Shown: positions 2,035 through 20,954 of the stretch, one piece after another
Layout of the letters: the number at the start of each line of letters is the position of its first letter
Numbering within the stretch: position 1 is the stretch's first letter
DNA from: Candidatus Iainarchaeum sp.
GTDB lineage: Archaea > Iainarchaeota > Iainarchaeia > Iainarchaeales > JACQJH01
DNA length: 32,000 bases
Assembly (NCBI GenBank): GCA_016205145.1
Contig: JACQJH010000001.1
Span: 330,001-362,000, forward strand
Direction of reading: 5' to 3'
Notes under the pieces: generated by a model
The model's database searches: none
What the model saw: the letters and a program-made list of their open reading frames with translations, nothing else
What the model was told of the DNA's origin: nothing
Translations under genes and position numbers: made by a program

Positions 2035-2445
2035 ATGAAAAAGATCGGCATAGTTGTTTCCGAATTCAATTCCGCAATCACTTCGAAAATGCTCGGCACT
2101 GCGCAGGCATACGCGCAAAAGCTCGGCCTCAAAGCGGAACGCGTCATAAGCGTGCCGGGCGCATTCGACATGCCCCTTGCGATAAAAGCCCTGCTTGAGC
2201 GAAGCGACATTGAAGGCGTCGCAACGCTTGGCGCGATAATCACCGGGGAAACATCCCACGATGAAATCATTGCGGCCGCGCTTGCAAAAACAATCCACGA
2301 TTTGCAGTTGGAGTTCAACAAGCCTGTTTCATTGGGCGTGTCGGGGCCGGGCATGACTGAAAAGCAGGCGAAGGAACGCGCGGAAGAATATGCAAAAAGA
2401 AGCGTTGACGCGCTCGCAAAAATGATTGCCGTGCTTGAAAAATAA
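2035..2445 (+). CDS. ribH: 6,7-dimethyl-8-ribityllumazine synthase
   Basis: ATG 2035 gives MKKIGIVVSEFN..., 136 aa, with the VPGAFDMP motif and a typical length. The ORF-track start at 1735 would overlap ribC and encodes Arg-rich junk. Confidence 0.85.
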   Translation: MKKIGIVVSEFNSAITSKMLGTAQAYAQKLGLKAERVISVPGAFDMPLAIKALLERSDIEGVATLGAIITGETSHDEIIAAALAKTIHDLQLEFNKPVSLGVSGPGMTEKQAKERAEEYAKRSVDALAKMIAVLEK

Positions 2446-2481
2446 GCATGGGGCGGGCGATTGTCCGGAAACTCCGCGGCC

Positions 2482-2498
2482 GGAAAAACTGTTTTTCC
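2482..2498. terminator. Hairpin between convergent genes (ribH and the 2521-3282 gene)
   Basis: GGAAAAA-CTG-TTTTTCC forms a 7-bp stem with a 3-nt loop and contains its own A and T runs. Flanking CCGG/CCGG could extend the stem. Confidence 0.4.
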
Positions 2499-2520
2499 CG
2501 ACCGGCAGTAAAACTGAAAC

Positions 2521-3282
2521 TCACCCTTCTTCCCTGTCCTCTTTTCCCTCATCGTGCTTTGGCGGTGGCGTCGGAACCTTTCCAAGCCTTCCGGCCCGCG
2601 CGTAAACCCTGAGTTGCTTTTCCGAAATCTTGAATGCCAGAGTGCCTTCCCTGCTTGACCTGCCCTCATTGAACGCATTTGTCATGCGGTCGTAAGTTTC
2701 AACCATTTGCGACCTGATGCTTCTGAGCTTCCTTAGCTTCCAAAACCCGGGCTTGTGGAAAAAAATCCCGATAAAATTAATGGGCAGTTTCCACGGGCTG
2801 ATGAGATAGAATTTTCCATGCTCGCTCTTTTCGGGCTTGAAAATTGTGAGCATTGGATTGAAGCCCCGCCCAAATTCCTTGATGGCTTCCCACGTAGGAT
2901 TTGACTTTTTGACCTTTGTTATCATGTCGTCTATTTTTGCAATGCTTTTCTCCTGCTGTTCTATCTGGGTGGCAAGAAGCCTCATTTGCTTTCTTGCGGT
3001 CTCCTCGTTTCTTTTCGGCGCCTCCTCGTCCCCCGCTTTCTGTTTTTCCTCAAGGATTTTTTTGCGTTCGTCCAGAGCCGCTTTCTGAAGCTCAGCATCC
3101 GCTTCTTCAAGCTCCCGATTGTAGCTTTCGGCGCTTTCAAACTTCCTGCCGAAAAAGTTGAAGTTCCTTTCTTCCGGCCTGCCTTTTTTCGGCTCGCTTT
3201 TCCTTTTTTCCGCCAAGAACCGCAGAGGCTTTTCAGCGGGCTTCCTTCTTCCAAATCTAATGCGCAATGCCATCGGATTCAC
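2521..3282 (-). CDS. Hypothetical Lys/Glu-rich coiled-coil protein
   Basis: 253-aa ORF starting 13 nt downstream of the PAC2 gene on the same strand. It has a charged helical middle region (ELEEADAELQKAALDERKKILEEKQK...) and a Pro/acidic tail. No family was recognised. Confidence 0.55.
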   Translation of the reverse strand: MNPMALRIRFGRRKPAEKPLRFLAEKRKSEPKKGRPEERNFNFFGRKFESAESYNRELEEADAELQKAALDERKKILEEKQKAGDEEAPKRNEETARKQMRLLATQIEQQEKSIAKIDDMITKVKKSNPTWEAIKEFGRGFNPMLTIFKPEKSEHGKFYLISPWKLPINFIGIFFHKPGFWKLRKLRSIRSQMVETYDRMTNAFNEGRSSREGTLAFKISEKQLRVYARAGRLGKVPTPPPKHDEGKEDREEG

Positions 3283-3294
3283 CAGTCTTTCTGT

Positions 3295-4053
3295 TCACGA
3301 GAACATCGGCGTCTGCACTGTCTTGTCCTCAAGCTTTTTTATTTCATCGCCCGTTTTTTTCATTGCGCCAAGGTGCGAGAGCAAAGCCTTCTCCGTTTCC
3401 TTCGCCTCCTTGAGCAGGGGAGCGATGTCAAGCCCCAGTCCGGACATTTCGTCAAGCTTTTTCAGCAATACCGCGGCAGCCTTGTAGTCCGCGGAAATCT
3501 GGACCCTGCCGAGAAGTGAGACTGCCTGGATGTCCTTGTCCATCAGATCAAGCATTATGAGCGCATTCACGCCGGTCGTGATGCCCTCGTTTATGATTTC
3601 AACGCCGTTTTTTTCCAGGAAATCCTTTGCCCTGGCATTCGAGGCTATGCCGTAGATTTTTTCCTTTTCCTCTTCCTCGGTCTTTATGCCGGCAAGGGAA
3701 ACCACTCTTTCAATGCCCTTGCCCTCGATCCAGTCCACGAGTTCCCTGGCAAAAATCCAGACAAGGTTCTGCGGAATGAGCTGCTCTGCAATGATCACTG
3801 CAAGCTTTTTCCTGTCGTTGACGTAAAGCCTCGACGGGTGCACGGGCCTGCCGCCGTGAATCCTGATGATCGGAACGAACGCGTTGGAATCCACGAACCC
3901 GATCTGCTCGAAATCAAGCTTTTCGACAAGGTATTTCGCGGCAATCGTGCCGACAAGGCCCATGCCGGGAAAGCCCTCAATGAGTGTATAACCTGAAAGG
4001 TTATGCTCGCCTTTTTCAACAAATTCAACCCAATACTTTTTCGATTCAGCCAA
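3295..4053 (-). CDS. PAC2-family proteasome assembly chaperone-like protein (COG1938)
   Basis: The N-terminal LIEGFPGMGLVGTIAAKYLVEKL... pattern and ~250-aa length are typical of archaeal PAC2 proteins. The start is TTG at 4053, because an in-frame stop lies 2 codons upstream. Confidence 0.75.
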   Translation of the reverse strand: MAESKKYWVEFVEKGEHNLSGYTLIEGFPGMGLVGTIAAKYLVEKLDFEQIGFVDSNAFVPIIRIHGGRPVHPSRLYVNDRKKLAVIIAEQLIPQNLVWIFARELVDWIEGKGIERVVSLAGIKTEEEEKEKIYGIASNARAKDFLEKNGVEIINEGITTGVNALIMLDLMDKDIQAVSLLGRVQISADYKAAAVLLKKLDEMSGLGLDIAPLLKEAKETEKALLSHLGAMKKTGDEIKKLEDKTVQTPMFS

Positions 4054-4108
4054 GGGAAATCACAATATAAGAAGAGTTTCAGTGTTTTTTAATTTATGTT
4101 TTTTTCGC

Positions 4109-4245
4109 CGGTTTCGTCCGGCTCGCCGTCACGTCCGGGCGCGTTTTCGACCGCGCGTGCCGAAACCAAGGCATATTGCTACGCAATATGCCGAGTATTC
4201 CATTAAAGCGTCCGGGGTTTTGCAAGGGGTGCAACCCCTGCGTTT
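4109..4245 (+). repeat. Structured intergenic repeat element, copy 1 (candidate ncRNA or hairpin-ended MITE)
   Basis: It aligns block by block with 18612-18758. Shared blocks are CGGTTTCGTCCG, GCCGTC.CGTCCGG and CGAA(A)CCAAGG. It has a 10-bp hairpin at 4170-4192 (GGCATATTGC-TAC-GCAATATGCC) and a GC hairpin at 4222-4241 (GCA-A-GGGGT-GCA-ACCCC-TGC). No credible ORF is present. Confidence 0.75.
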
Positions 4246-4315
4246 TATCCGGCTGGTCCGATGCCCATGCTCATTTCATTCGCATGGAGCTGCGCGCTGT
4301 TGCGCGTTGAGAAAC

Positions 4316-5248
4316 TCAAAAGAACATGCCTGCCGCAAAATACGCAAGAAAGCCCGCCGGAAGCATGAACGCAGCATACAAACAGCCTTTCTTCCAGTCC
4401 TTTTCCTGGAATCCGAGGAATGCGGAGGCAAGAATGGCATACTCGGCAATGTACGCCTGGCTGCCGAGAACCGCGGCGTCAAACAATTGTTTCCTCTGCT
4501 CCGCCGGAACGCCTAAGCCGAATTCCGCGAACTCCGAAAAATGCATTCCAGACACCATCGAAATTATCATGCCAAGAATGGCCGGAACTATAATTGCGCC
4601 GGCAAAAAGCAGGGTATATTTTTGGACTAAAAGGCCCGCCTGCCGTTCCCTGAAAGCGGAAGCGGTTTCAAGCAAATCCTCGGCGGTTTCCCGGAACACG
4701 GCTGACATGTCGGCGCCGCTTTCATAGCCGTGCAGCAAAAGGTTCAAAGCCCGGTCCGCGATTGCGCTGTCCGCCCTCTCCGAAAAATCCGCGAACGCCT
4801 GCGCAACGCTTTTTCCCGCGGTTATTCCTGCGGCGCATTTCCCGAACTCCTTTCCAAGCCCGCCGAATTCCTCGGAAGCGAACGCTTCAAGGGTTTTTGC
4901 CATTGGCGTTTTAGGCGGGAAAACCGATGCCTGCAAAAGCAGGTCCGGAATCATTTCCTCCATTGCCCGGCGCCTGACGCCGAACCGGTAAAGCACGGCA
5001 AACGACCTTGATGCGAGCGGCACGAAAAGCAATGCAATGCAAGCAAACAGAATGTGCCCGGCTGGAAGTTTCAGCAAAAACAGCACTCCGAAAAACGCGG
5101 CCGCAAGGCCCGCGCCTGAAAGCAGGTTTTCCGAAACAAACGATTCAAAGGTTCTGCCTTTCACGCAAAGCAGTTTTCCGCAAAACGAGCGCATTGCACG
5201 CTTTCCAAAAACGGTTTCAAAAAATTTTTCCAGCCGCAAGCATTCCAC
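4316..5248 (-). CDS. Type II secretion system F-domain membrane protein (TadC/FlaJ-half-like)
   Basis: 310 aa, polytopic. A cytoplasmic helical T2SS-F-like segment (SVAQAFADFSERADSAIADRALNLLLHGYESGADMSAVFRETAEDL) is followed by TM helices. It is the last gene of the ATPase operon. Confidence 0.6.
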   Translation of the reverse strand: MECLRLEKFFETVFGKRAMRSFCGKLLCVKGRTFESFVSENLLSGAGLAAAFFGVLFLLKLPAGHILFACIALLFVPLASRSFAVLYRFGVRRRAMEEMIPDLLLQASVFPPKTPMAKTLEAFASEEFGGLGKEFGKCAAGITAGKSVAQAFADFSERADSAIADRALNLLLHGYESGADMSAVFRETAEDLLETASAFRERQAGLLVQKYTLLFAGAIIVPAILGMIISMVSGMHFSEFAEFGLGVPAEQRKQLFDAAVLGSQAYIAEYAILASAFLGFQEKDWKKGCLYAAFMLPAGFLAYFAAGMFF

Positions 5249-15645: not shown

Positions 15646-15702
15646 CGCTTCCATTCCGGCATTCGGAAAGGATGTTTTAAATAGGCTTTTTGCGAATTAT
15701 GT

Positions 15703-16341
15703 GTGATGCTAAAATCGCCTTTGCCGCGCATTAGGCGTGCCGTGCAGGGCCGCCGGCGTGCGGTGGTAAAACGCGAATGGGATAGGCGCGCTAGTACTAT
15801 TGAGGCTGCCCTGCAGCAAAGGGAATTTTTGAAATCGTTGCTTGACGCTGAATGCTCGGGGCCGAACAGGCTGGACCTGATGTCCGGGACCGGGTTGGAT
15901 GCGGGCGCTGTTGCATTGGACCTTTCCGGCAAAATGCTTGGGGTGAACCCGGCAGCACGCAAGGTAATGGCAAACATTGACCCGCATCTTGGGCCGGCGG
16001 GCATTCCTTTTCCTGGCAATCAGTTTGACTCGGTTTCAATGGTTAATGGCGTGAGGTATCTGAACAGGCCGGCTGAAACCTTCAAAGAAATATTCAGGGT
16101 TCTGCGGAAAGGCGGAAAACTTGTCATAATAAACTATGCCGGGCCGGGAATAAGGGATGTGCCGCGGCCCAAAACCCTTTCAGTTTCGGGTTTGGAGAAA
16201 CTGCTTAATCGGTCGGGGTTCAAAACGCACACAAGAGAAGAAATGGCGCCGCCCCCCGATACGCTCTCTGTTATACGGGTGCTGACTGGCGCCGAACCGC
16301 GGTCCGTGCCGTATTTTGTTATTGTCGCGGAAAAACAATGA
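15703..16341 (+). CDS. SAM-dependent methyltransferase-like protein (Methyltransf_11-like)
   Basis: FPGNQFDSVSMVNGVRYLNRPAETFKEIFRVLRKGGKLVIINY is typical of the post-motif I/II region. Motif I is atypical (DLMSGTGLD). The start is GTG 15703 or ATG 15706, and TTTTAAATA at 15675-15683 lies ~23 nt upstream. Confidence 0.6.
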   Translation: MMLKSPLPRIRRAVQGRRRAVVKREWDRRASTIEAALQQREFLKSLLDAECSGPNRLDLMSGTGLDAGAVALDLSGKMLGVNPAARKVMANIDPHLGPAGIPFPGNQFDSVSMVNGVRYLNRPAETFKEIFRVLRKGGKLVIINYAGPGIRDVPRPKTLSVSGLEKLLNRSGFKTHTREEMAPPPDTLSVIRVLTGAEPRSVPYFVIVAEKQ

Positions 16342-16353
16342 CAAGCCTTGTTT

Positions 16354-16485
16354 TTATTCCCACTCTATTTCGTCGCCCTGGCGCGTGCCCTTCGCCTTTC
16401 CGGCGGGCAGTTCGATGAAGTATTTCGCGGCCTTTTTTCCGGGCATGGTTTGGCGTGAACGCCAAAGGGCTTCAGGAGCTGTCGC
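16354..16485 (-). pseudogene. Duplicated, frameshifted 3' fragment of the DUF192 gene
   Basis: 16354-16437 aligns with 17028-17111. The 51 nt at 16387-16437 are identical to 17061-17111, and the 33 nt that include the stop codon have 7 mismatches. Copy A has T6 where copy B has T5, which shifts the frame. Upstream, weaker similarity remains (LKPFG vs LQPFT). Confidence 0.75.
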
Positions 16486-16488
16486 AAT

Positions 16489-16611
16489 TCAGAGCTTCCC
16501 TATCGCGGTCAAAAGCTTTTCGTGGCCTTTTATGAGCCTGTTGAACTCTTCAAGTTCTTCGGAAACAATCCTGCTCTTAATGCTGTCTTTCAAATTTTCT
16601 GATTTTGCCAT
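16489..16611 (-). CDS. 40-aa helical small ORF overlapping the 3' end of the Doc gene (candidate cognate partner or antitoxin)
   Basis: Hand translation gives MAKSENLKDSIKSRIVSEELEEFNRLIKGHEKLLTAIGKL*. The ATG at 16611 lies 35 nt inside the Doc ORF in another frame. The ORF is too short for the ORF track, and no family was recognised. Confidence 0.35.
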   Translation of the reverse strand: MAKSENLKDSIKSRIVSEELEEFNRLIKGHEKLLTAIGKL

Positions 16612-16975
16612 TTTTTATCCACTCCGTTATCTCCGAATCCGAATAATGGTTTTCCCTTATGCCAAGCAAAATTTTGGCATTTTCGGGGTTGTCGGGTATT
16701 GCCGTGCGGCAATTGTTTTCCGCCAGAAAATATTTCATTGCAATGAACGCCGTTCTTCTGTTGCCGCTGGCAAAGGCATGGCCTTGAACGAGGCATTTCA
16801 GGAGAACCGCAGCTTTCGCGTAAATGTCCCCGTCAAGCTTCCTGCAATTCTCGACGGCCTCTGAAAGCTTTGCCCTGCTTAAAACCTTTGCCGAATCAGA
16901 TTTCTTCGCCTTCAGAACGCTCAACGCCAAAACATTGAATTCTATGATTTTGTCGGGCGAAGGGTATGAAATCAT
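16577..16975 (-). CDS. Doc (death-on-curing)/Fic-family toxin-like protein
   Basis: AAVLLKCLVQGHAFASGNRRTAFIAMKYFLAENN matches the Doc core (HxFxxxN[KG]R plus RTA). ATG 16975 (MISYPSPDKIIEFN...) is preferred over the TTG at 17014. An AT-rich TTTTTATTA lies just upstream on the minus strand. Confidence 0.75.
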   Translation of the reverse strand: MISYPSPDKIIEFNVLALSVLKAKKSDSAKVLSRAKLSEAVENCRKLDGDIYAKAAVLLKCLVQGHAFASGNRRTAFIAMKYFLAENNCRTAIPDNPENAKILLGIRENHYSDSEITEWIKNGKIRKFERQH

Positions 16976-17027
16976 AAGTATTCTATTCTCCCCCGGCTTA
17001 ATAAAAATATCCAAAGGCAGCAGGCCT

Positions 17028-17387
17028 TTACTCCCATTCTATTTCATCGCCCAACCGCGCGCCCTTCGCCTTTCCGGCGGGCAGTTCGATGAAGTATTTC
17101 GCGGCCTTTTTCGGCGTGTAATTCGGGGTGAACGGCTGGAGGCTTTCTGCGATGTCCACAACCTTTCTGTTCGAGTCGAGGAAAATTATGTCAATCGCGA
17201 AGAACACGAACATCATGTGCACGCTTGCCCCGATTTTGGATTCGGAGTCAAGCACGAAAACAAGGCCGTAATCGAATTTTTTCGTGTCCTCGAACATGAG
17301 GCCGCGCAGTTTGTCCCAGGAAGCGGAAATGACCTTGGACTTTGCAATGATTTTTGTTTTGCGGGTTTTGTTGAAAATCATCCGCAA
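17028..17387 (-). CDS. DUF192 (COG1430) family protein
   Basis: 119 aa. GLMF...D.....MFVFFAIDIIFLD....V......L.PF......KAAKYFIELPAG fits my recollection of DUF192. Confidence 0.65.
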   Translation of the reverse strand: MRMIFNKTRKTKIIAKSKVISASWDKLRGLMFEDTKKFDYGLVFVLDSESKIGASVHMMFVFFAIDIIFLDSNRKVVDIAESLQPFTPNYTPKKAAKYFIELPAGKAKGARLGDEIEWE

Positions 17388-18481: not shown

Positions 18482-18536
18482 GGCCGAAACGCAAAAGTTA
18501 AATGCCTTCTCCCGAATAATTTCTTTCTGCCATTCT

Positions 18537-18609
18537 AGCCCCGTAGTCTAGTGGCCAAGGATTCGAGGCTCTGGACCTCGAGACGAGAGTTCGAATCTCT
18601 CCGGGGCTA
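18537..18609 (+). tRNA. tRNA-Gln (anticodon CUG), no encoded CCA
   Basis: Hand-folded cloverleaf. The acceptor stem is AGCCCCG/CGGGGCT with discriminator A. The D stem is GTCT/GGAT with GG in the loop. The anticodon stem is CGAGG/CCTCG with loop CT-CTG-GA. The variable loop has 4 nt. The T arm is GAGAG-TTCGAAT-CTCTC. Confidence 0.93.
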
Positions 18610-18611
18610 AG

Positions 18612-18790
18612 CGGTTTCGTCCGCAGCCGTCTCGTCCGGCTGGTACGAACCAAGGCGTATTGCTGATCGCAATACGCCGGGTATGCTGTTTGTGCATAAG
18701 TGGTATTGCGCAAGCAATACCACGCAAGGGGTTTGCAAGGGGCGCTAGCCCCTGCGTTGTGACACGCCGAGTAAGCCGGCCTTTTTTTTT
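18612..18790 (+). repeat. Structured intergenic repeat element, copy 2, immediately 3' of tRNA-Gln and ending in a T10 run
   Basis: It shares the blocks of 4109-4245. Hairpin A is at 18654-18678 (GGCGTATTGC-TGATC-GCAATACGCC). An extra hairpin B is at 18700-18723 (GTGGTATTGC-GCAA-GCAATACCAC). Hairpin C is at 18735-18755 (GCA-A-GGGGC-GCTA-GCCCC-TGC). The T10 run is at 18782-18791. Confidence 0.75.
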
Positions 18791-18900
18791 TAGGAACCCA
18801 AAAAAGAAACCGCGGCATACTACTTTCTGCCGTATGCCACTGCCTAGCTCGGCTGGTTTTTGTCTGTTTGGCATTGTAAAGAATTCGGATTATTTTTTTT

Positions 18901-19548
18901 TCAGTCCGCATGGCCGTATTTTGCCTGCACTTGTCCCGGGGCCGAAACGGTTGGCGGCTCTGCGCGGTAAATCAGCCAGATAAAATCTACCTGTCCATCG
19001 GATTCTTCAATCGGCCCGTCCGCGATCCCGCCGTTCCAGTTGTCTAAAACGATTTTTCTTGCCGGGCCATAGGAATCGACTTTCCATTTCGTCCAGTCCG
19101 CGTCTTCAATCGCGGCAACGCTCCACTTTCCGGCCGAGCTGCTGAACTGCCATGTCCCGTCCGCGTTTATTTCGAGCCGGTGCCCTGTTCCGCTTCCCAC
19201 GTCCCCGCCTCCGCCCGCGTCATAAAACAGCCTTGAGGACAGGGCGCGCCATGAGCCGGCAAATTCCTGCGGATTTGACTGGCTTGCCTTGCCGGCTTCA
19301 ATGCCGGGAATTTCATCTTCTTCTGATGGAATGGCCGGAGGCGCATCGCTTTCATCTTCCGCAATCGCCTGTATTTCCTCGTTGTCGCTTGGCGGTGCAG
19401 GGGGCAGGTCGGAATCCTCTATTGCCGCTTGTTTGCCGCCTGCATCGGCACTTTTGGCGGTTTGCGGAAATTGTGTGCATCCTGCAAGCAGGATTAATGC
19501 AAGCAATGCCAATAATGCCAAATTTTTGAATTTCATTTTATCCATCAT
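18901..19548 (-). CDS. Secreted lipoprotein-like protein with an acidic Pro-rich repeat
   Basis: The signal peptide has a lipobox-like LLAGC (MMDKMKFKNLALLALLALILLAGC). A tandem acidic repeat reads EDSDLPPAPPSDNEEIQA / EDESDAPPAIPSEEDEIPG. Its start overlaps the upstream stop (ATGA at 19545-19548). Confidence 0.7.
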   Translation of the reverse strand: MMDKMKFKNLALLALLALILLAGCTQFPQTAKSADAGGKQAAIEDSDLPPAPPSDNEEIQAIAEDESDAPPAIPSEEDEIPGIEAGKASQSNPQEFAGSWRALSSRLFYDAGGGGDVGSGTGHRLEINADGTWQFSSSAGKWSVAAIEDADWTKWKVDSYGPARKIVLDNWNGGIADGPIEESDGQVDFIWLIYRAEPPTVSAPGQVQAKYGHAD

Positions 19549-20828
19549 CCCGCATCCTCAATATACCGCCTGCCTCTTGTTCCTTGCGGGGTTATTCCGG
19601 AATCTTGCGAGGCTGTTATTTCATCGGTTGATTCCGGTGCGGCTGGCGGCGCTTCCTCGCCGTCTTCGCTGCCAAGAATGCAGTCATCGGCAACTTTGAT
19701 CCAGTAGCCGGTTCCGGCATTAAGCTGGTCGCGCTTGTAGTAGCCCTGCGGCTTTCCGTTTTCAATGAACCCGCTGTAAGTGAGCGGGCCTTTGAGTATG
19801 CTGCAGCTCGTGTTTTTTGCAGTGTCGAACGATTTTTCCGTTTGGATGCTTATAAGGTTCCAGCCTTTTTTCAGCGCTATTGCCTGTTCGGACAGGAATT
19901 TGCCCGTATACTTTATTGTGCAGTCGCCGCTGGCGCTTTTCGGGCTGGCCCTTTTGGCCCACAGGCCTTTTCCGATGAGGCTCTTGTCTTTCAGGTCAGT
20001 GACTTTCCGGTACTTGCCGTTTTCCTTGTCGTAGTAATAGAATTTTGAAACGCATGAATGGTTCTCGCTTGAAATTTCTGCGTATGGCACGCCGACAAGG
20101 CTCCATGTCCAATCCAGCGCGAACCTCAGTTCCCGCTCGGTGCCGGTTGCGGCTTGCGCCTGCTTGAAGCACCTGCCTGTTGAGTCAACAACAAGCCCGC
20201 CATTGCAGGTCTTTCCGTTCGGGGGCGCGGCGCCGCATGCGTATAACCCCTCGCAGCCGCAAAGAATGTACCCTGTGCGGTCCCAAACGGTCCCGTTCTT
20301 GCACGAAGTGTCTTGTGCCGGCGGGGTTGGTGCGGGTGCCGGGCTTGGAGCCGGAGCAGGGGCCGTGCCGGCCTTGGAGGAAGCTTTCACTGTCACAGCC
20401 GCATAATCGTTCGCGCCATTCTTGCACGTAATGTCGGTGAAGCAGTAGCCGCCGCTGCAGACAACGTCATCCAAAAAAATTTTGGCCGACACCTTGTAGT
20501 CGACGTCCTTGCCTGAGGCTTTGTAAGTGCAGTATGCGCCCGAATACGACAGAGTTGTGCTTGTGTAAGCAGCAATCCTTGCAGTCACGGCATCCTCGTT
20601 CGCGCCGGGCAAGGCGTTTCCCGCATTGCAGTTCACTTCGACTTTGGTATTGCCGTTGAAACCGCCTGCAAGCCCTTCGCCGAAAACCGTGACCCTTCCG
20701 GCATTCGCGCCGTAATCGTTGTCAATATCGACAATGGCCGGCGTTGCGGAAACATCGCAGCTTGCCGCGGACGCAAAAGCCGCGAACAATGCAACAAACA
20801 TCAAAAAAGCAATGGGTTTACCAAACAT
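19545..20828 (-). CDS. Secreted Cys-rich protein (427 aa)
   Basis: The Sec-type signal peptide is MFGKPIAFLMFVALFAAFASA. GGAGG lies 8 nt upstream of the ATG. It has an APAPAPSPAPAPTPP linker, many Cys residues and an acidic C-terminal tail. Confidence 0.75.
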   Translation of the reverse strand: MFGKPIAFLMFVALFAAFASAASCDVSATPAIVDIDNDYGANAGRVTVFGEGLAGGFNGNTKVEVNCNAGNALPGANEDAVTARIAAYTSTTLSYSGAYCTYKASGKDVDYKVSAKIFLDDVVCSGGYCFTDITCKNGANDYAAVTVKASSKAGTAPAPAPSPAPAPTPPAQDTSCKNGTVWDRTGYILCGCEGLYACGAAPPNGKTCNGGLVVDSTGRCFKQAQAATGTERELRFALDWTWSLVGVPYAEISSENHSCVSKFYYYDKENGKYRKVTDLKDKSLIGKGLWAKRASPKSASGDCTIKYTGKFLSEQAIALKKGWNLISIQTEKSFDTAKNTSCSILKGPLTYSGFIENGKPQGYYKRDQLNAGTGYWIKVADDCILGSEDGEEAPPAAPESTDEITASQDSGITPQGTRGRRYIEDAG

Positions 20829-20954
20829 TTTTGCCGCCTCCGTGGAACAACGCAGAAACGCTTTATGGTTTCCCGAATATATAAATTATTCGGTTAAAGC
20901 TTTTTTTGTTCGGTTAAAACTTTTCCAATGCTGCAGCTGAAAGCCTGCGGCCGC

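Follow-up and report, generated by a model that had tools for sequence, protein, structure and literature searches.

A 32,000-nucleotide (nt) stretch of the genome of Candidatus Iainarchaeum sp. (contig JACQJH010000001.1 of assembly GCA_016205145.1, positions 330,001 to 362,000 of the forward strand; the whole stretch is called the window here) contains a Doc-family toxin gene and a 40-amino-acid (aa) open reading frame (ORF) that lie between an intact DUF192 gene and a displaced duplicate of the 3′ end of that same gene. Along the minus strand the order is DUF192, a 51-nt spacer, Doc, the 40-aa ORF and the DUF192 3′ fragment. The intact DUF192 gene (17028–17381) encodes 117 aa from an ATG and matches Pfam PF02643 (E=3e-17). 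The 51-nt spacer (16976–17026), which forms the left arm of the cassette, carries a TATA-like box, TTTTTATTAA, at 16998–17007, and is followed by the Doc/Fic-family gene of 132 aa (16577–16975; PF02661 and TIGR01550) and by the 40-aa ORF (16489–16611), a putative antitoxin gene that overlaps the 3′ end of Doc by 35 nt in another frame. The displaced fragment of ~136 nt (16353–16488), also on the minus strand, starts directly at the stop codon of the 40-aa ORF and has its own stop codon at 16354–16356. Beyond it lies a convergent gene for a class I S-adenosylmethionine (SAM) methyltransferase of the UbiE-like type (15703–16341, plus strand; Pfam Methyltransf_11 / Ubie_methyltran).

The repeat that frames the cassette was recovered by a repeat search of the window as two direct copies of 85 nt with 92% identity (16353–16437 and 17027–17111), 674 nt apart, the upstream one comprising the last 84 nt of DUF192 with its stop codon plus 1 nt. 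Between the copies lie 589 nt with the Fic/Doc gene and the 40-aa ORF, and the lower copy begins 13 nt past the last base of the methyltransferase ORF. Base-by-base alignment divides the repeat into a core that is identical at all 51 positions (16387–16437 and 17061–17111) and a terminal part of 33 nt (16354–16386 in the fragment) that has seven mismatches (26/33 identical), and a one-base indel, A6 against A5 (T6 against T5 on the plus strand), marks the upstream edge of the core. Searched across the window, a 50-nt core pattern gave exactly two hits, where shuffled sequence would be expected to give none. These features agree with what a first-pass annotation of the window had described: an 84-nt repeat with the stop codon inside, a 51-nt core, seven terminal mismatches in 33 nt, a T6/T5 frameshift, a distance of 13 nt to the methyltransferase stop, and ~590 bp of intervening DNA holding Doc and the small ORF. 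That annotation was right in calling the lower copy a duplicate of the DUF192 3′ end and fell short in its length: because the similarity to DUF192 continues through the 51 nt that separate the core from the small-ORF stop (16438–16488), the displaced fragment corresponds to the last ~136 nt of the gene and not to 84. This arm is colinear with DUF192 upstream of the core with three indels, and it matches the DUF192 alleles of two relatives (L173 and L012, introduced below) at p≤0.0005 against shuffles. The identity profile of the fragment thus runs from an arm of ~62% with indels through the 51/51 core to the 26/33 terminal part, and the core differs from both neighbours (Fisher p=9e-4 against the terminal part and 1e-6 against the arm). 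As a separate observation, the fragment has an ATG of its own exactly at the boundary of arm and core, giving a 30-aa ORF (16354–16446, minus strand; MPGKKAAKYFIELPAGKAKGTRQGDEIEWE), which is probably fortuitous because the lower copies at other loci have no start codon.

Four states of the DUF192 locus were found among public assemblies. In the first, represented by four samples (L173–L176) with DUF192 proteins at least 90% identical to that of the window, the order is UppS, a small ORF, DUF192, a spacer of 39 nt and an ATPase, without Doc, the 40-aa ORF or the methyltransferase. Positions 456–2043 of L173 match window 18624–17034 at 94.7% nt identity and positions 2092–5183 match window 15646–12554 at 92.0% (both by blastn), and in the window a 1.38-kb block (15647–17026) with the cassette, the fragment and the methyltransferase stands in place of the 39-nt spacer. 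More distant relatives (L117, L125 and L139) also have the ATPase after DUF192 and no methyltransferase. In the second state (L012), UppS, the small ORF and DUF192 are followed by the methyltransferase after the same spacer as in the window, the cassette is absent and the duplicated segment is present in a single copy (L012 3115–3417 against window 16459–16156, 93%). L012 therefore supplies the empty site that the first-pass annotation had proposed to look for, methyltransferase and DUF192 adjacent without Doc, although its left flank is only 77% identical to that of the window; L173–L176 are without the methyltransferase as well. In the third state (L011), what follows the DUF192 stop codon is a remnant: Doc is reduced to its last 17 nt, the small ORF is intact (39/40 aa), and ~20 nt from the start of the arm are present before other sequence begins. 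The rest of Doc is missing from this region (L011 980–1250, compare window 16485–17030) by a deletion from just past the DUF192 stop to 17 nt ahead of the small-ORF ATG. The fourth state is the window itself, with DUF192, Doc, the small ORF, the fragment, the methyltransferase and the ATPase. The flanks of L011 are 99.6–99.97% identical to those of L173, and the presence or absence of the insert is thus a very recent polymorphism between nearly identical genomes. The last ~25 nt of DUF192 differ between L011 and L173 (THIGDEIEWE-stop against TRIGDEIEWKE-stop), and the N10 of the L011 scaffold is apparently of zero length.

We read the cassette as an insertion because relatives have the site empty (L012; L173–L176), and from these comparisons it is an insertion between the intact DUF192 gene and a displaced duplicate of its 3′ end. 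The first-pass annotation had made a recent insertion depend on relatives not conserving the same arrangement and on the repeat being no assembly artefact; the relatives are without this arrangement, and the independent assembly L011 shares the junction of small ORF and arm. The similarity of the locus to its relatives is mosaic. Sliding identity between the window DUF192 and L173 is ~97% and drops to 80–90% over the last ~160 nt of the gene, which look like a replacement end from another allele. On the far side, the fragment and the methyltransferase are 93% nt identical to L012, as against 77–81% for the remaining L012 genome. The 51-nt core is identical only between the two copies of the window; L011 and L173 each differ from it at four positions and L012 at three, and clade-wide conservation was rejected as the explanation of the perfect core. 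For fixing the ends of the window's cassette, no cassette relative nearer than ~70% nt identity was available.

The assignment of the toxin is based on two profile models. The window Doc scores 50 bits against NCBIfam TIGR01550 DOC_P1 (cut-off 38.65) and 33.5 bits against Pfam PF02661 (cut-off 24), and the Doc profile also matches PDB 9vzc, a 'death-on-curing family protein' (E=4e-5). The gene starts with the ATG at 16975, its 132-aa product is identical to database protein P0001, and among 407 homologues those that are named come mostly from DPANN archaea. The active-site motif of phage P1 Doc is HxFx(D/N)(A/G)NKR, and that of the window Doc is HAFASGNRR, which keeps H, F, N and the final R, has S at position 5 and replaces K by R; F, A, S, G, N, R, R and T are invariant in 22 homologues. 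The TATA-like box, ~27 nt ahead of the Doc ATG, is likely the promoter of a leaderless transcript.

When one genome of each GTDB species was scanned with the Doc profile, 80 loci were obtained, which belong to Iainarchaeota, Micrarchaeota, Woesearchaeota, Nanoarchaeota and Aenigmatarchaeota. A co-oriented 40-aa ORF downstream of Doc and overlapping its end is kept in 78 of them; in an alignment of 39 sequences its mean column identity is 68%, with a conserved pattern ...F..L..GH.KLL.AIG.L. The 40-aa protein has no match in Pfam, NCBIfam or PDB, and no Phd/YefM, AbrB or RHH antitoxin was found upstream of Doc. Because the 40-aa ORF is strictly linked to Doc and is retained in L011, where Doc is gone, we propose that its product is probably the antitoxin of Doc. 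The 35 nt at 16577–16611 encode both the C-terminus of Doc (WIKNGKIRKFERQH and the stop) and the N-terminus of the 40-aa protein (MAKSENLKD...), both frames are conserved across loci, and the overlap starts at an A-rich run (ATAAAAAATGG). In one Iainarchaeum lineage (L001–L006, 3686–3958), Doc has, besides the 40-aa ORF downstream, a 90-aa ORF 43 nt upstream that has no Pfam match and could be a second partner or a regulator.

Comparison of these loci shows that the cassette is a discrete unit that recurs at unrelated DPANN sites. Between non-orthologous cassettes, nucleotide homology is limited to the interval from −43 to −60 relative to the Doc ATG through 0 to +13 relative to the small-ORF stop, which defines a unit of ~540–560 bp, and the flanks are unrelated between sites. 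A TATA-like hexamer at −32 to −27 is present in 60/75 cassettes against 5/75 in a coding control, and the cassette of the window has a guanine-plus-cytosine (GC) content of 45.0% against 52.5% for the window. Terminal inverted repeats are not evident (6/74 cassettes lie above the 95th percentile of shuffles), and no enriched k-mer or common motif was found in the cassette flanks. A Pfam scan of ORFs found no integrase or transposase within ±10 kb of the window's cassette, in line with the first-pass annotation, and no integrase was seen among the genes called around 12 other cassette loci (L001–L010, L178 and L182). A virus-borne cassette was rejected, with one distant match among 2.9 million viral contigs.

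Several observations concern the distribution and context of this unit. Records titled Elusimicrobia, Bacteroidetes and Pirellulales (L041, L052 and L071) and several Methanosarcinales carry a Doc 53–59% aa identical to that of the window, with no small-ORF match in L041; these cassettes reflect either binning or labelling error, or transfer beyond DPANN. The motif GGGGAGTTCCGTAGTTTT occurs 65–100 nt upstream of the Doc ATG in L061, L065, L083 and L085 (twice in L085), just beyond the left end of the cassette, in one cassette subfamily and with none seen in other subfamilies. In L014, the upstream flank is shared with L018 and the downstream flank with L007, placing the cassette at the joint of differently arranged neighbourhoods; the cassette itself may act as portable homology for rearrangements.

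Direct repeats around other cassettes were sought in alignments of the two flanks, the 400–600 nt preceding Doc and the DNA that follows the small ORF. Repeats above shuffles (z>6) flank 25 of 73 loci, about a third, with lengths of 19–251 nt and identities of 73–100%, and they were reproduced by a repeat-search program; a repeat of 15 nt in L078 extends the overall range to 15–251 nt. Scores of at least 40 were reached in 16/62 real windows against 6/332 displaced control windows from the same loci (p=8e-10), and the tight geometry with a score of at least 30 was found in 15/71 loci against 1/697 controls. The geometry is similar at most loci: ~40–70 nt separate the end of the upstream copy from the Doc ATG, and 0–50 nt separate the small-ORF stop from the start of the lower copy. 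Each repeat copies its local target, and the commonest target is the 3′ end of a conserved housekeeping gene; at many loci an intact co-oriented gene has its stop codon within a few nt of the place where the upstream copy ends. The targets include the genes for ribosomal protein S7 (L044), a NusA-like KH protein (L080), ThyX (L059), ABCE1/RLI (L089), a signal-peptide peptidase (L064), a MopE-related protein (L075) and, in the window, DUF192; L007 and L014 differ in that the gene left intact is the downstream, convergent neighbour. Because the target is mostly the 3′ end of a gene, both neighbours stay intact, and in L064 both convergent genes stay whole because a 34-nt repeat covers the ends of both.

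The target is not specific, since DUF192 adjoins Doc in none of 80 other Doc loci and Doc occurs in none of 80 DUF192 loci. On these counts a preference for DUF192 was rejected; they gave no instance of the Doc and small-ORF pair beside DUF192 3′ ends elsewhere, for which the first-pass annotation had proposed to search. Targeting of tRNA genes was also rejected, with one of 24 repeat-flanked loci touching a tRNA. In that locus (L029, 2812–2953), an 82-nt flanking repeat of 99% identity covers the last 16 nt of tRNA-Glu and 66 nt downstream, and a third, partial copy of the repeat follows. One orthologous insertion is available in two genomes (L089 and L178, 86.8% identical over cassette and flanks), and its repeat measures 23 nt in L089 but ~11 nt in L178; therefore, cassettes without a detectable repeat may be older insertions. 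Apart from the cassettes, seven of 75 more distant DUF192 loci have the last 21–70 nt of the gene, stop codon included, repeated 50–190 nt downstream with no intervening gene (L105 728–837, L107 895–998, L122 485–606 and L121 728–981; also L123, L097 and L098). In L105 and L107 the spacer is ~57 nt long and includes a hairpin, L122 has a tandem 85-nt unit, and these repeats without cargo may represent a tandem duplication, a small hairpin element or the scar of cargo since lost.

The differences between the two copies of a repeat carry information of their own. Across eight loci, the differing codons comprise 19 synonymous and 7 non-synonymous changes, an excess of synonymous ones with binomial p=7e-6 against 0.30 (neutral) and 0.005 against 0.46, the expectation with one copy constrained and the other free. 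The synonymous differences include switches between codon families for Ser (TCT/AGY) and Arg (CGA/AGG). In the S7 locus L044, the copies agree over 88 nt and then part in the final four codons, SSR-stop, which are recoded at 7/12 nt; in the window, four of six differing codons are synonymous and the other two fall at positions that are variable among orthologues. This codon comparison shows the two copies to differ as orthologous alleles do, unlike a gene and its decaying copy. Because the differences are mostly synonymous, the cassette would also pass from lineage to lineage through homologous recombination in which a replacement 3′ end comes along.

The layout of the window is an insertion with long target duplication, in which the cassette follows the stop codon of the intact gene and the displaced 3′ end lies beyond it. 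Our data suggest a model, which we consider probable while leaving real room for doubt, whereby the repeat marks the entry of a small toxin-antitoxin cassette without a transposase, which was inserted by the host's own machinery, is held in place by addiction and spreads by homologous recombination. The first insertion at a new site would be made by host repair or replication, through staggered breaks with fill-in or through template switching and with no dedicated recombinase, and the variable lengths of the duplications would follow from this. In gene-dense genomes, survival would be limited to insertions whose duplication spans a gene end, and repeat-flanked insertions would persist because toxin-antitoxin addiction penalises their loss through recombination between the repeats. 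A repeat-flanked cassette could then spread to the same site of related lineages by ordinary homologous recombination, with the conserved gene as the left arm of the exchange and the duplicated fragment or the downstream flank as the right arm. One exchange would fall in or upstream of the conserved gene and the other inside the short duplicated fragment; to the left of the latter, both copies would be donor-derived and identical, and to its right the lower copy would be the recipient's own allele. A crossover inside the fragment would thus leave a repeat with an identical stretch and a terminal part of allelic, mostly synonymous differences. For L044, the model predicts S7 alleles ending in TCTAGCAGGTAG without the cassette and in AGTAGTCGATAA with it. 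The window locus would be a recombinant of two alleles: one would have given the last ~160 nt of DUF192, the cassette and the fragment's arm and core, and the other, an L012-like allele, the fragment's terminal 33 nt and the methyltransferase. The first-pass annotation had read the repeats as attL/attR-like and had also offered homologous recombination with a diverged DUF192 allele; its view of an insertion with a replacement 3′ end is supported by the empty sites and the mosaic DUF192, its attL/attR reading finds neither an integrase nor a shared core, and its recombination alternative gives the best fit for the window locus, given the mosaic and the synonymous mismatches.

Several points weigh against this model. 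The profile of arm, core and terminal part fits neither duplication followed by decay nor a single crossover, and an extra event is needed: the decayed arm beside a perfect core would require additional gene conversion between the copies, or an older history. The way in which the duplication first arises is our inference, and the antitoxin role of the 40-aa protein is a reading of its genomic context. About 60–65% of the cassettes have no detectable flanking repeat, for which erosion, seen in one orthologous pair, is a plausible cause, and a direct empty site is at hand for the window locus only; exact-protein look-ups for a second one, among neighbours of the S7 locus L044 and the ABCE1 locus L089, returned cassette-bearing relatives only. 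Finally, the fragment could have come with the methyltransferase, because that segment is an outlier in similarity (93% against 77–81%).

The last point can be developed into an explanation of its own, in which a genome like L173 or L011 that already had DUF192, Doc and the small ORF acquired an L012-like segment, with a homologous end near the ATPase promoter and an illegitimate join just past the small ORF, and the perfect core arose by later gene conversion. The close relationship of the fragment and methyltransferase to L012, which reaches 97% at the aa level, speaks for such an acquisition, as does the absence of the methyltransferase from the nearest relatives and from the distant ones with the ATPase after DUF192. 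We nevertheless regard it as unlikely. One copy lies 51 nt ahead of the Doc ATG and the other directly adjoins the small-ORF stop, positions that match those at ~25 other cassettes at unrelated sites, and this match would have to be coincidental; L011 has the junction of small ORF and arm without the methyltransferase; and pairing of an imported DUF192 end with the resident gene should have put the methyltransferase beside DUF192.

Direct repeats of this size can excise circles, and hybrid repeats with an identical core and diverged arms, as described by the first-pass annotation, would also be produced if a circle carrying the cassette and a ~136-nt DUF192 segment, possibly excised from another strain via its repeats, had recombined once with the chromosomal DUF192 3′ end in the manner of Campbell. 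The sequence of diverged, identical and diverged parts in the window is what such a single crossover would leave. We hold this to be quite unlikely, since at L044 and L080 the differences lie on one side only of the identical stretch, where a double crossover with one exchange inside the fragment fits better, the upstream arm of the window differs by indels and looks decayed rather than allelic, and a circular form was not observed.

An integrative element that inserted site-specifically into the DUF192 3′ end, its integrase since lost or acting in trans and its attL and attR surviving as the repeats, is very unlikely and in our view already largely refuted. A 3′ end restored by the incoming DNA, with the original displaced, is the classic result of integration into tRNA genes or gene 3′ ends, and the L029 repeat does take in the end of a tRNA gene; against this stand the lack of an integrase or transposase around the cassette, a unit of merely ~550 bp at every site, repeats of widely different lengths and unrelated sequences with no shared core, the lack of terminal inverted repeats, and the separate occurrence of Doc and DUF192 in the two sets of 80 loci. 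Least of all do we believe in an assembly artefact, which is extremely unlikely: the window comes from a metagenome assembly, related strains with different locus states coexist in public data and a 51-nt exact repeat could mislead a de Bruijn assembler into joining two co-occurring strains with a false duplication, but the sequence from the small-ORF stop through arm and core must exist in a real genome, the independent L011 shares the junction of small ORF and arm, the same architecture recurs in ~25 independent assemblies, and a chimera could involve no more than the terminal 33 nt and the methyltransferase. Other element types were considered and rejected: a transposable element of the insertion-sequence (IS) or miniature inverted-repeat (MITE) type, which is at odds with the missing terminal inverted repeats and with duplications that are not of a short fixed length; a diversity-generating retroelement, as there is no reverse transcriptase and the mismatches are not adenine-specific, only three of the seven having A in the fragment copy; and an integron, integrase or transposase origin, as there is no such gene within ±10 kb, no conserved flank motif and no terminal inverted repeat.

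Within ±10 kb the cassette is surrounded by housekeeping genes only, and tRNA-Gln is the only result of an Rfam scan of the window. The DUF192 protein of the window is database protein P0154, with 92% aa identity to P0121; its named homologues are from DPANN archaea, the nearest from Candidatus Iainarchaeum. The methyltransferase, of the UbiE-like, small-molecule type, is 97% aa identical to the proteins of L012 and L093. The geranylgeranyl reductase gene directly adjoins UppS in L012 (window 18500–20950 against L012 1441–1789), and the window has between these two genes tRNA-Gln (18536–18610) and two ORFs without Pfam matches (18901–19548 and 19545–20828). A stretch of ~56–60 nt in the L012 spacer matches window 18764–18819 (91%) and 4140–4197 (83%), which suggests a short dispersed repeat.

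For restriction-modification gene complexes, insertion with long target duplication was reportedly described by Nobusato et al. (2000, Gene 259:99). The cassette described here resembles those insertions in being an addiction-type gene pair without a mobility gene, in having long direct repeats that vary in length and differ at each site, and in that the repeats align to a single copy in the empty-site genome and the target stays intact. It is unlike them in its cargo, a putative toxin-antitoxin pair of the Doc family, and because this cargo is not a restriction-modification system the proposal that a cargo nuclease makes the breaks does not carry over. The hosts are DPANN archaea and not bacteria, the unit is far smaller (~550 bp) with sharply conserved ends, and the differences between the repeat copies, allelic and synonymous in character, point to homologous recombination as the route of secondary spread. 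In bacteria, restriction-modification complexes have been found with long, variable target duplications that often span start or stop sites and with no mobility gene (Furuta et al. 2010, PMC2853133; Mruk & Kobayashi 2014, PMC3874152), and no archaeal case passed the screen of the former study. Measured by that screen (Furuta et al. 2010, PMC2853133), the window has a whole module far below 20 kb with no mobility gene (589 nt between the copies), a repeat beyond the 30-bp threshold (85 nt at 92%, or ~136 nt with the decayed arm) and an empty site in L012, whose left flank is 77% identical.

Compared with elements that integrate at gene 3′ ends, the cassette is similar in that incoming DNA supplies the 3′ end of the target and the original is displaced to the far side, and in that the repeat is an identical stretch with diverged parts beyond; it is unlike them in having no integrase, no conserved att core, a different target for each copy and one 550-bp module as cargo. 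Transfer by homologous recombination shares with the window locus its mosaic similarity, both in DUF192 (97% and then 80–90%) and in the methyltransferase segment (93% against 77–81%). Plain homologous recombination makes no duplication at a new site, however, and would explain only the spread to orthologous sites and the hybrid repeats. The Phd-Doc system of phage P1 is a type II toxin-antitoxin pair in which Doc phosphorylates EF-Tu. The toxin described here passes both the DOC_P1 and the Fic/Doc models, and like Phd-Doc it belongs to a small two-gene operon that is patchy and horizontally mobile. In contrast to P1, its partner is a downstream 40-aa protein that overlaps the 3′ end of the toxin gene and falls in no described family, and its motif departs from that of P1 Doc as set out above.

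Chromosomal toxin-antitoxin modules are known to be mobile, usually without a recombinase (Van Melderen & Saavedra De Bast 2009, PMC2654758). In the literature we found no account of the Doc and 40-aa cassette or of long target duplications around classical toxin-antitoxin pairs, an absence that is not certain, and the arrangement in the window appears to be one instance of a wider pattern that is so far undescribed. A bolder proposal, which we put forward tentatively as possible, is that the Doc and 40-aa unit is a distinct mobile element of ~550 bp, self-stabilising and without a recombinase of its own, for which conserved genes serve as the arms for spread among DPANN archaea.

The movement of chromosomal toxin-antitoxin modules, within a genome and from one genome to another, has long wanted an explanation. 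Our analysis offers a compact and sharply bounded cassette with dozens of independent insertions, together with a recurrent footprint that combines a target duplication preserving the neighbouring genes with a signature of secondary spread by homologous recombination. It extends a phenomenon so far known only from bacterial restriction-modification systems to a putative toxin-antitoxin pair and to small, gene-dense archaeal genomes, in which the 3′ ends of core genes, such as those for ribosomal protein S7, ABCE1, ThyX and the NusA-like protein, are being rewritten by such cassettes, and it presents the conserved 40-aa protein as a candidate new antitoxin of Doc. If the unit is indeed a distinct mobile element without a recombinase, it would provide a general and testable route by which chromosomal toxin-antitoxin modules travel, as well as a new antitoxin family for Doc toxins.

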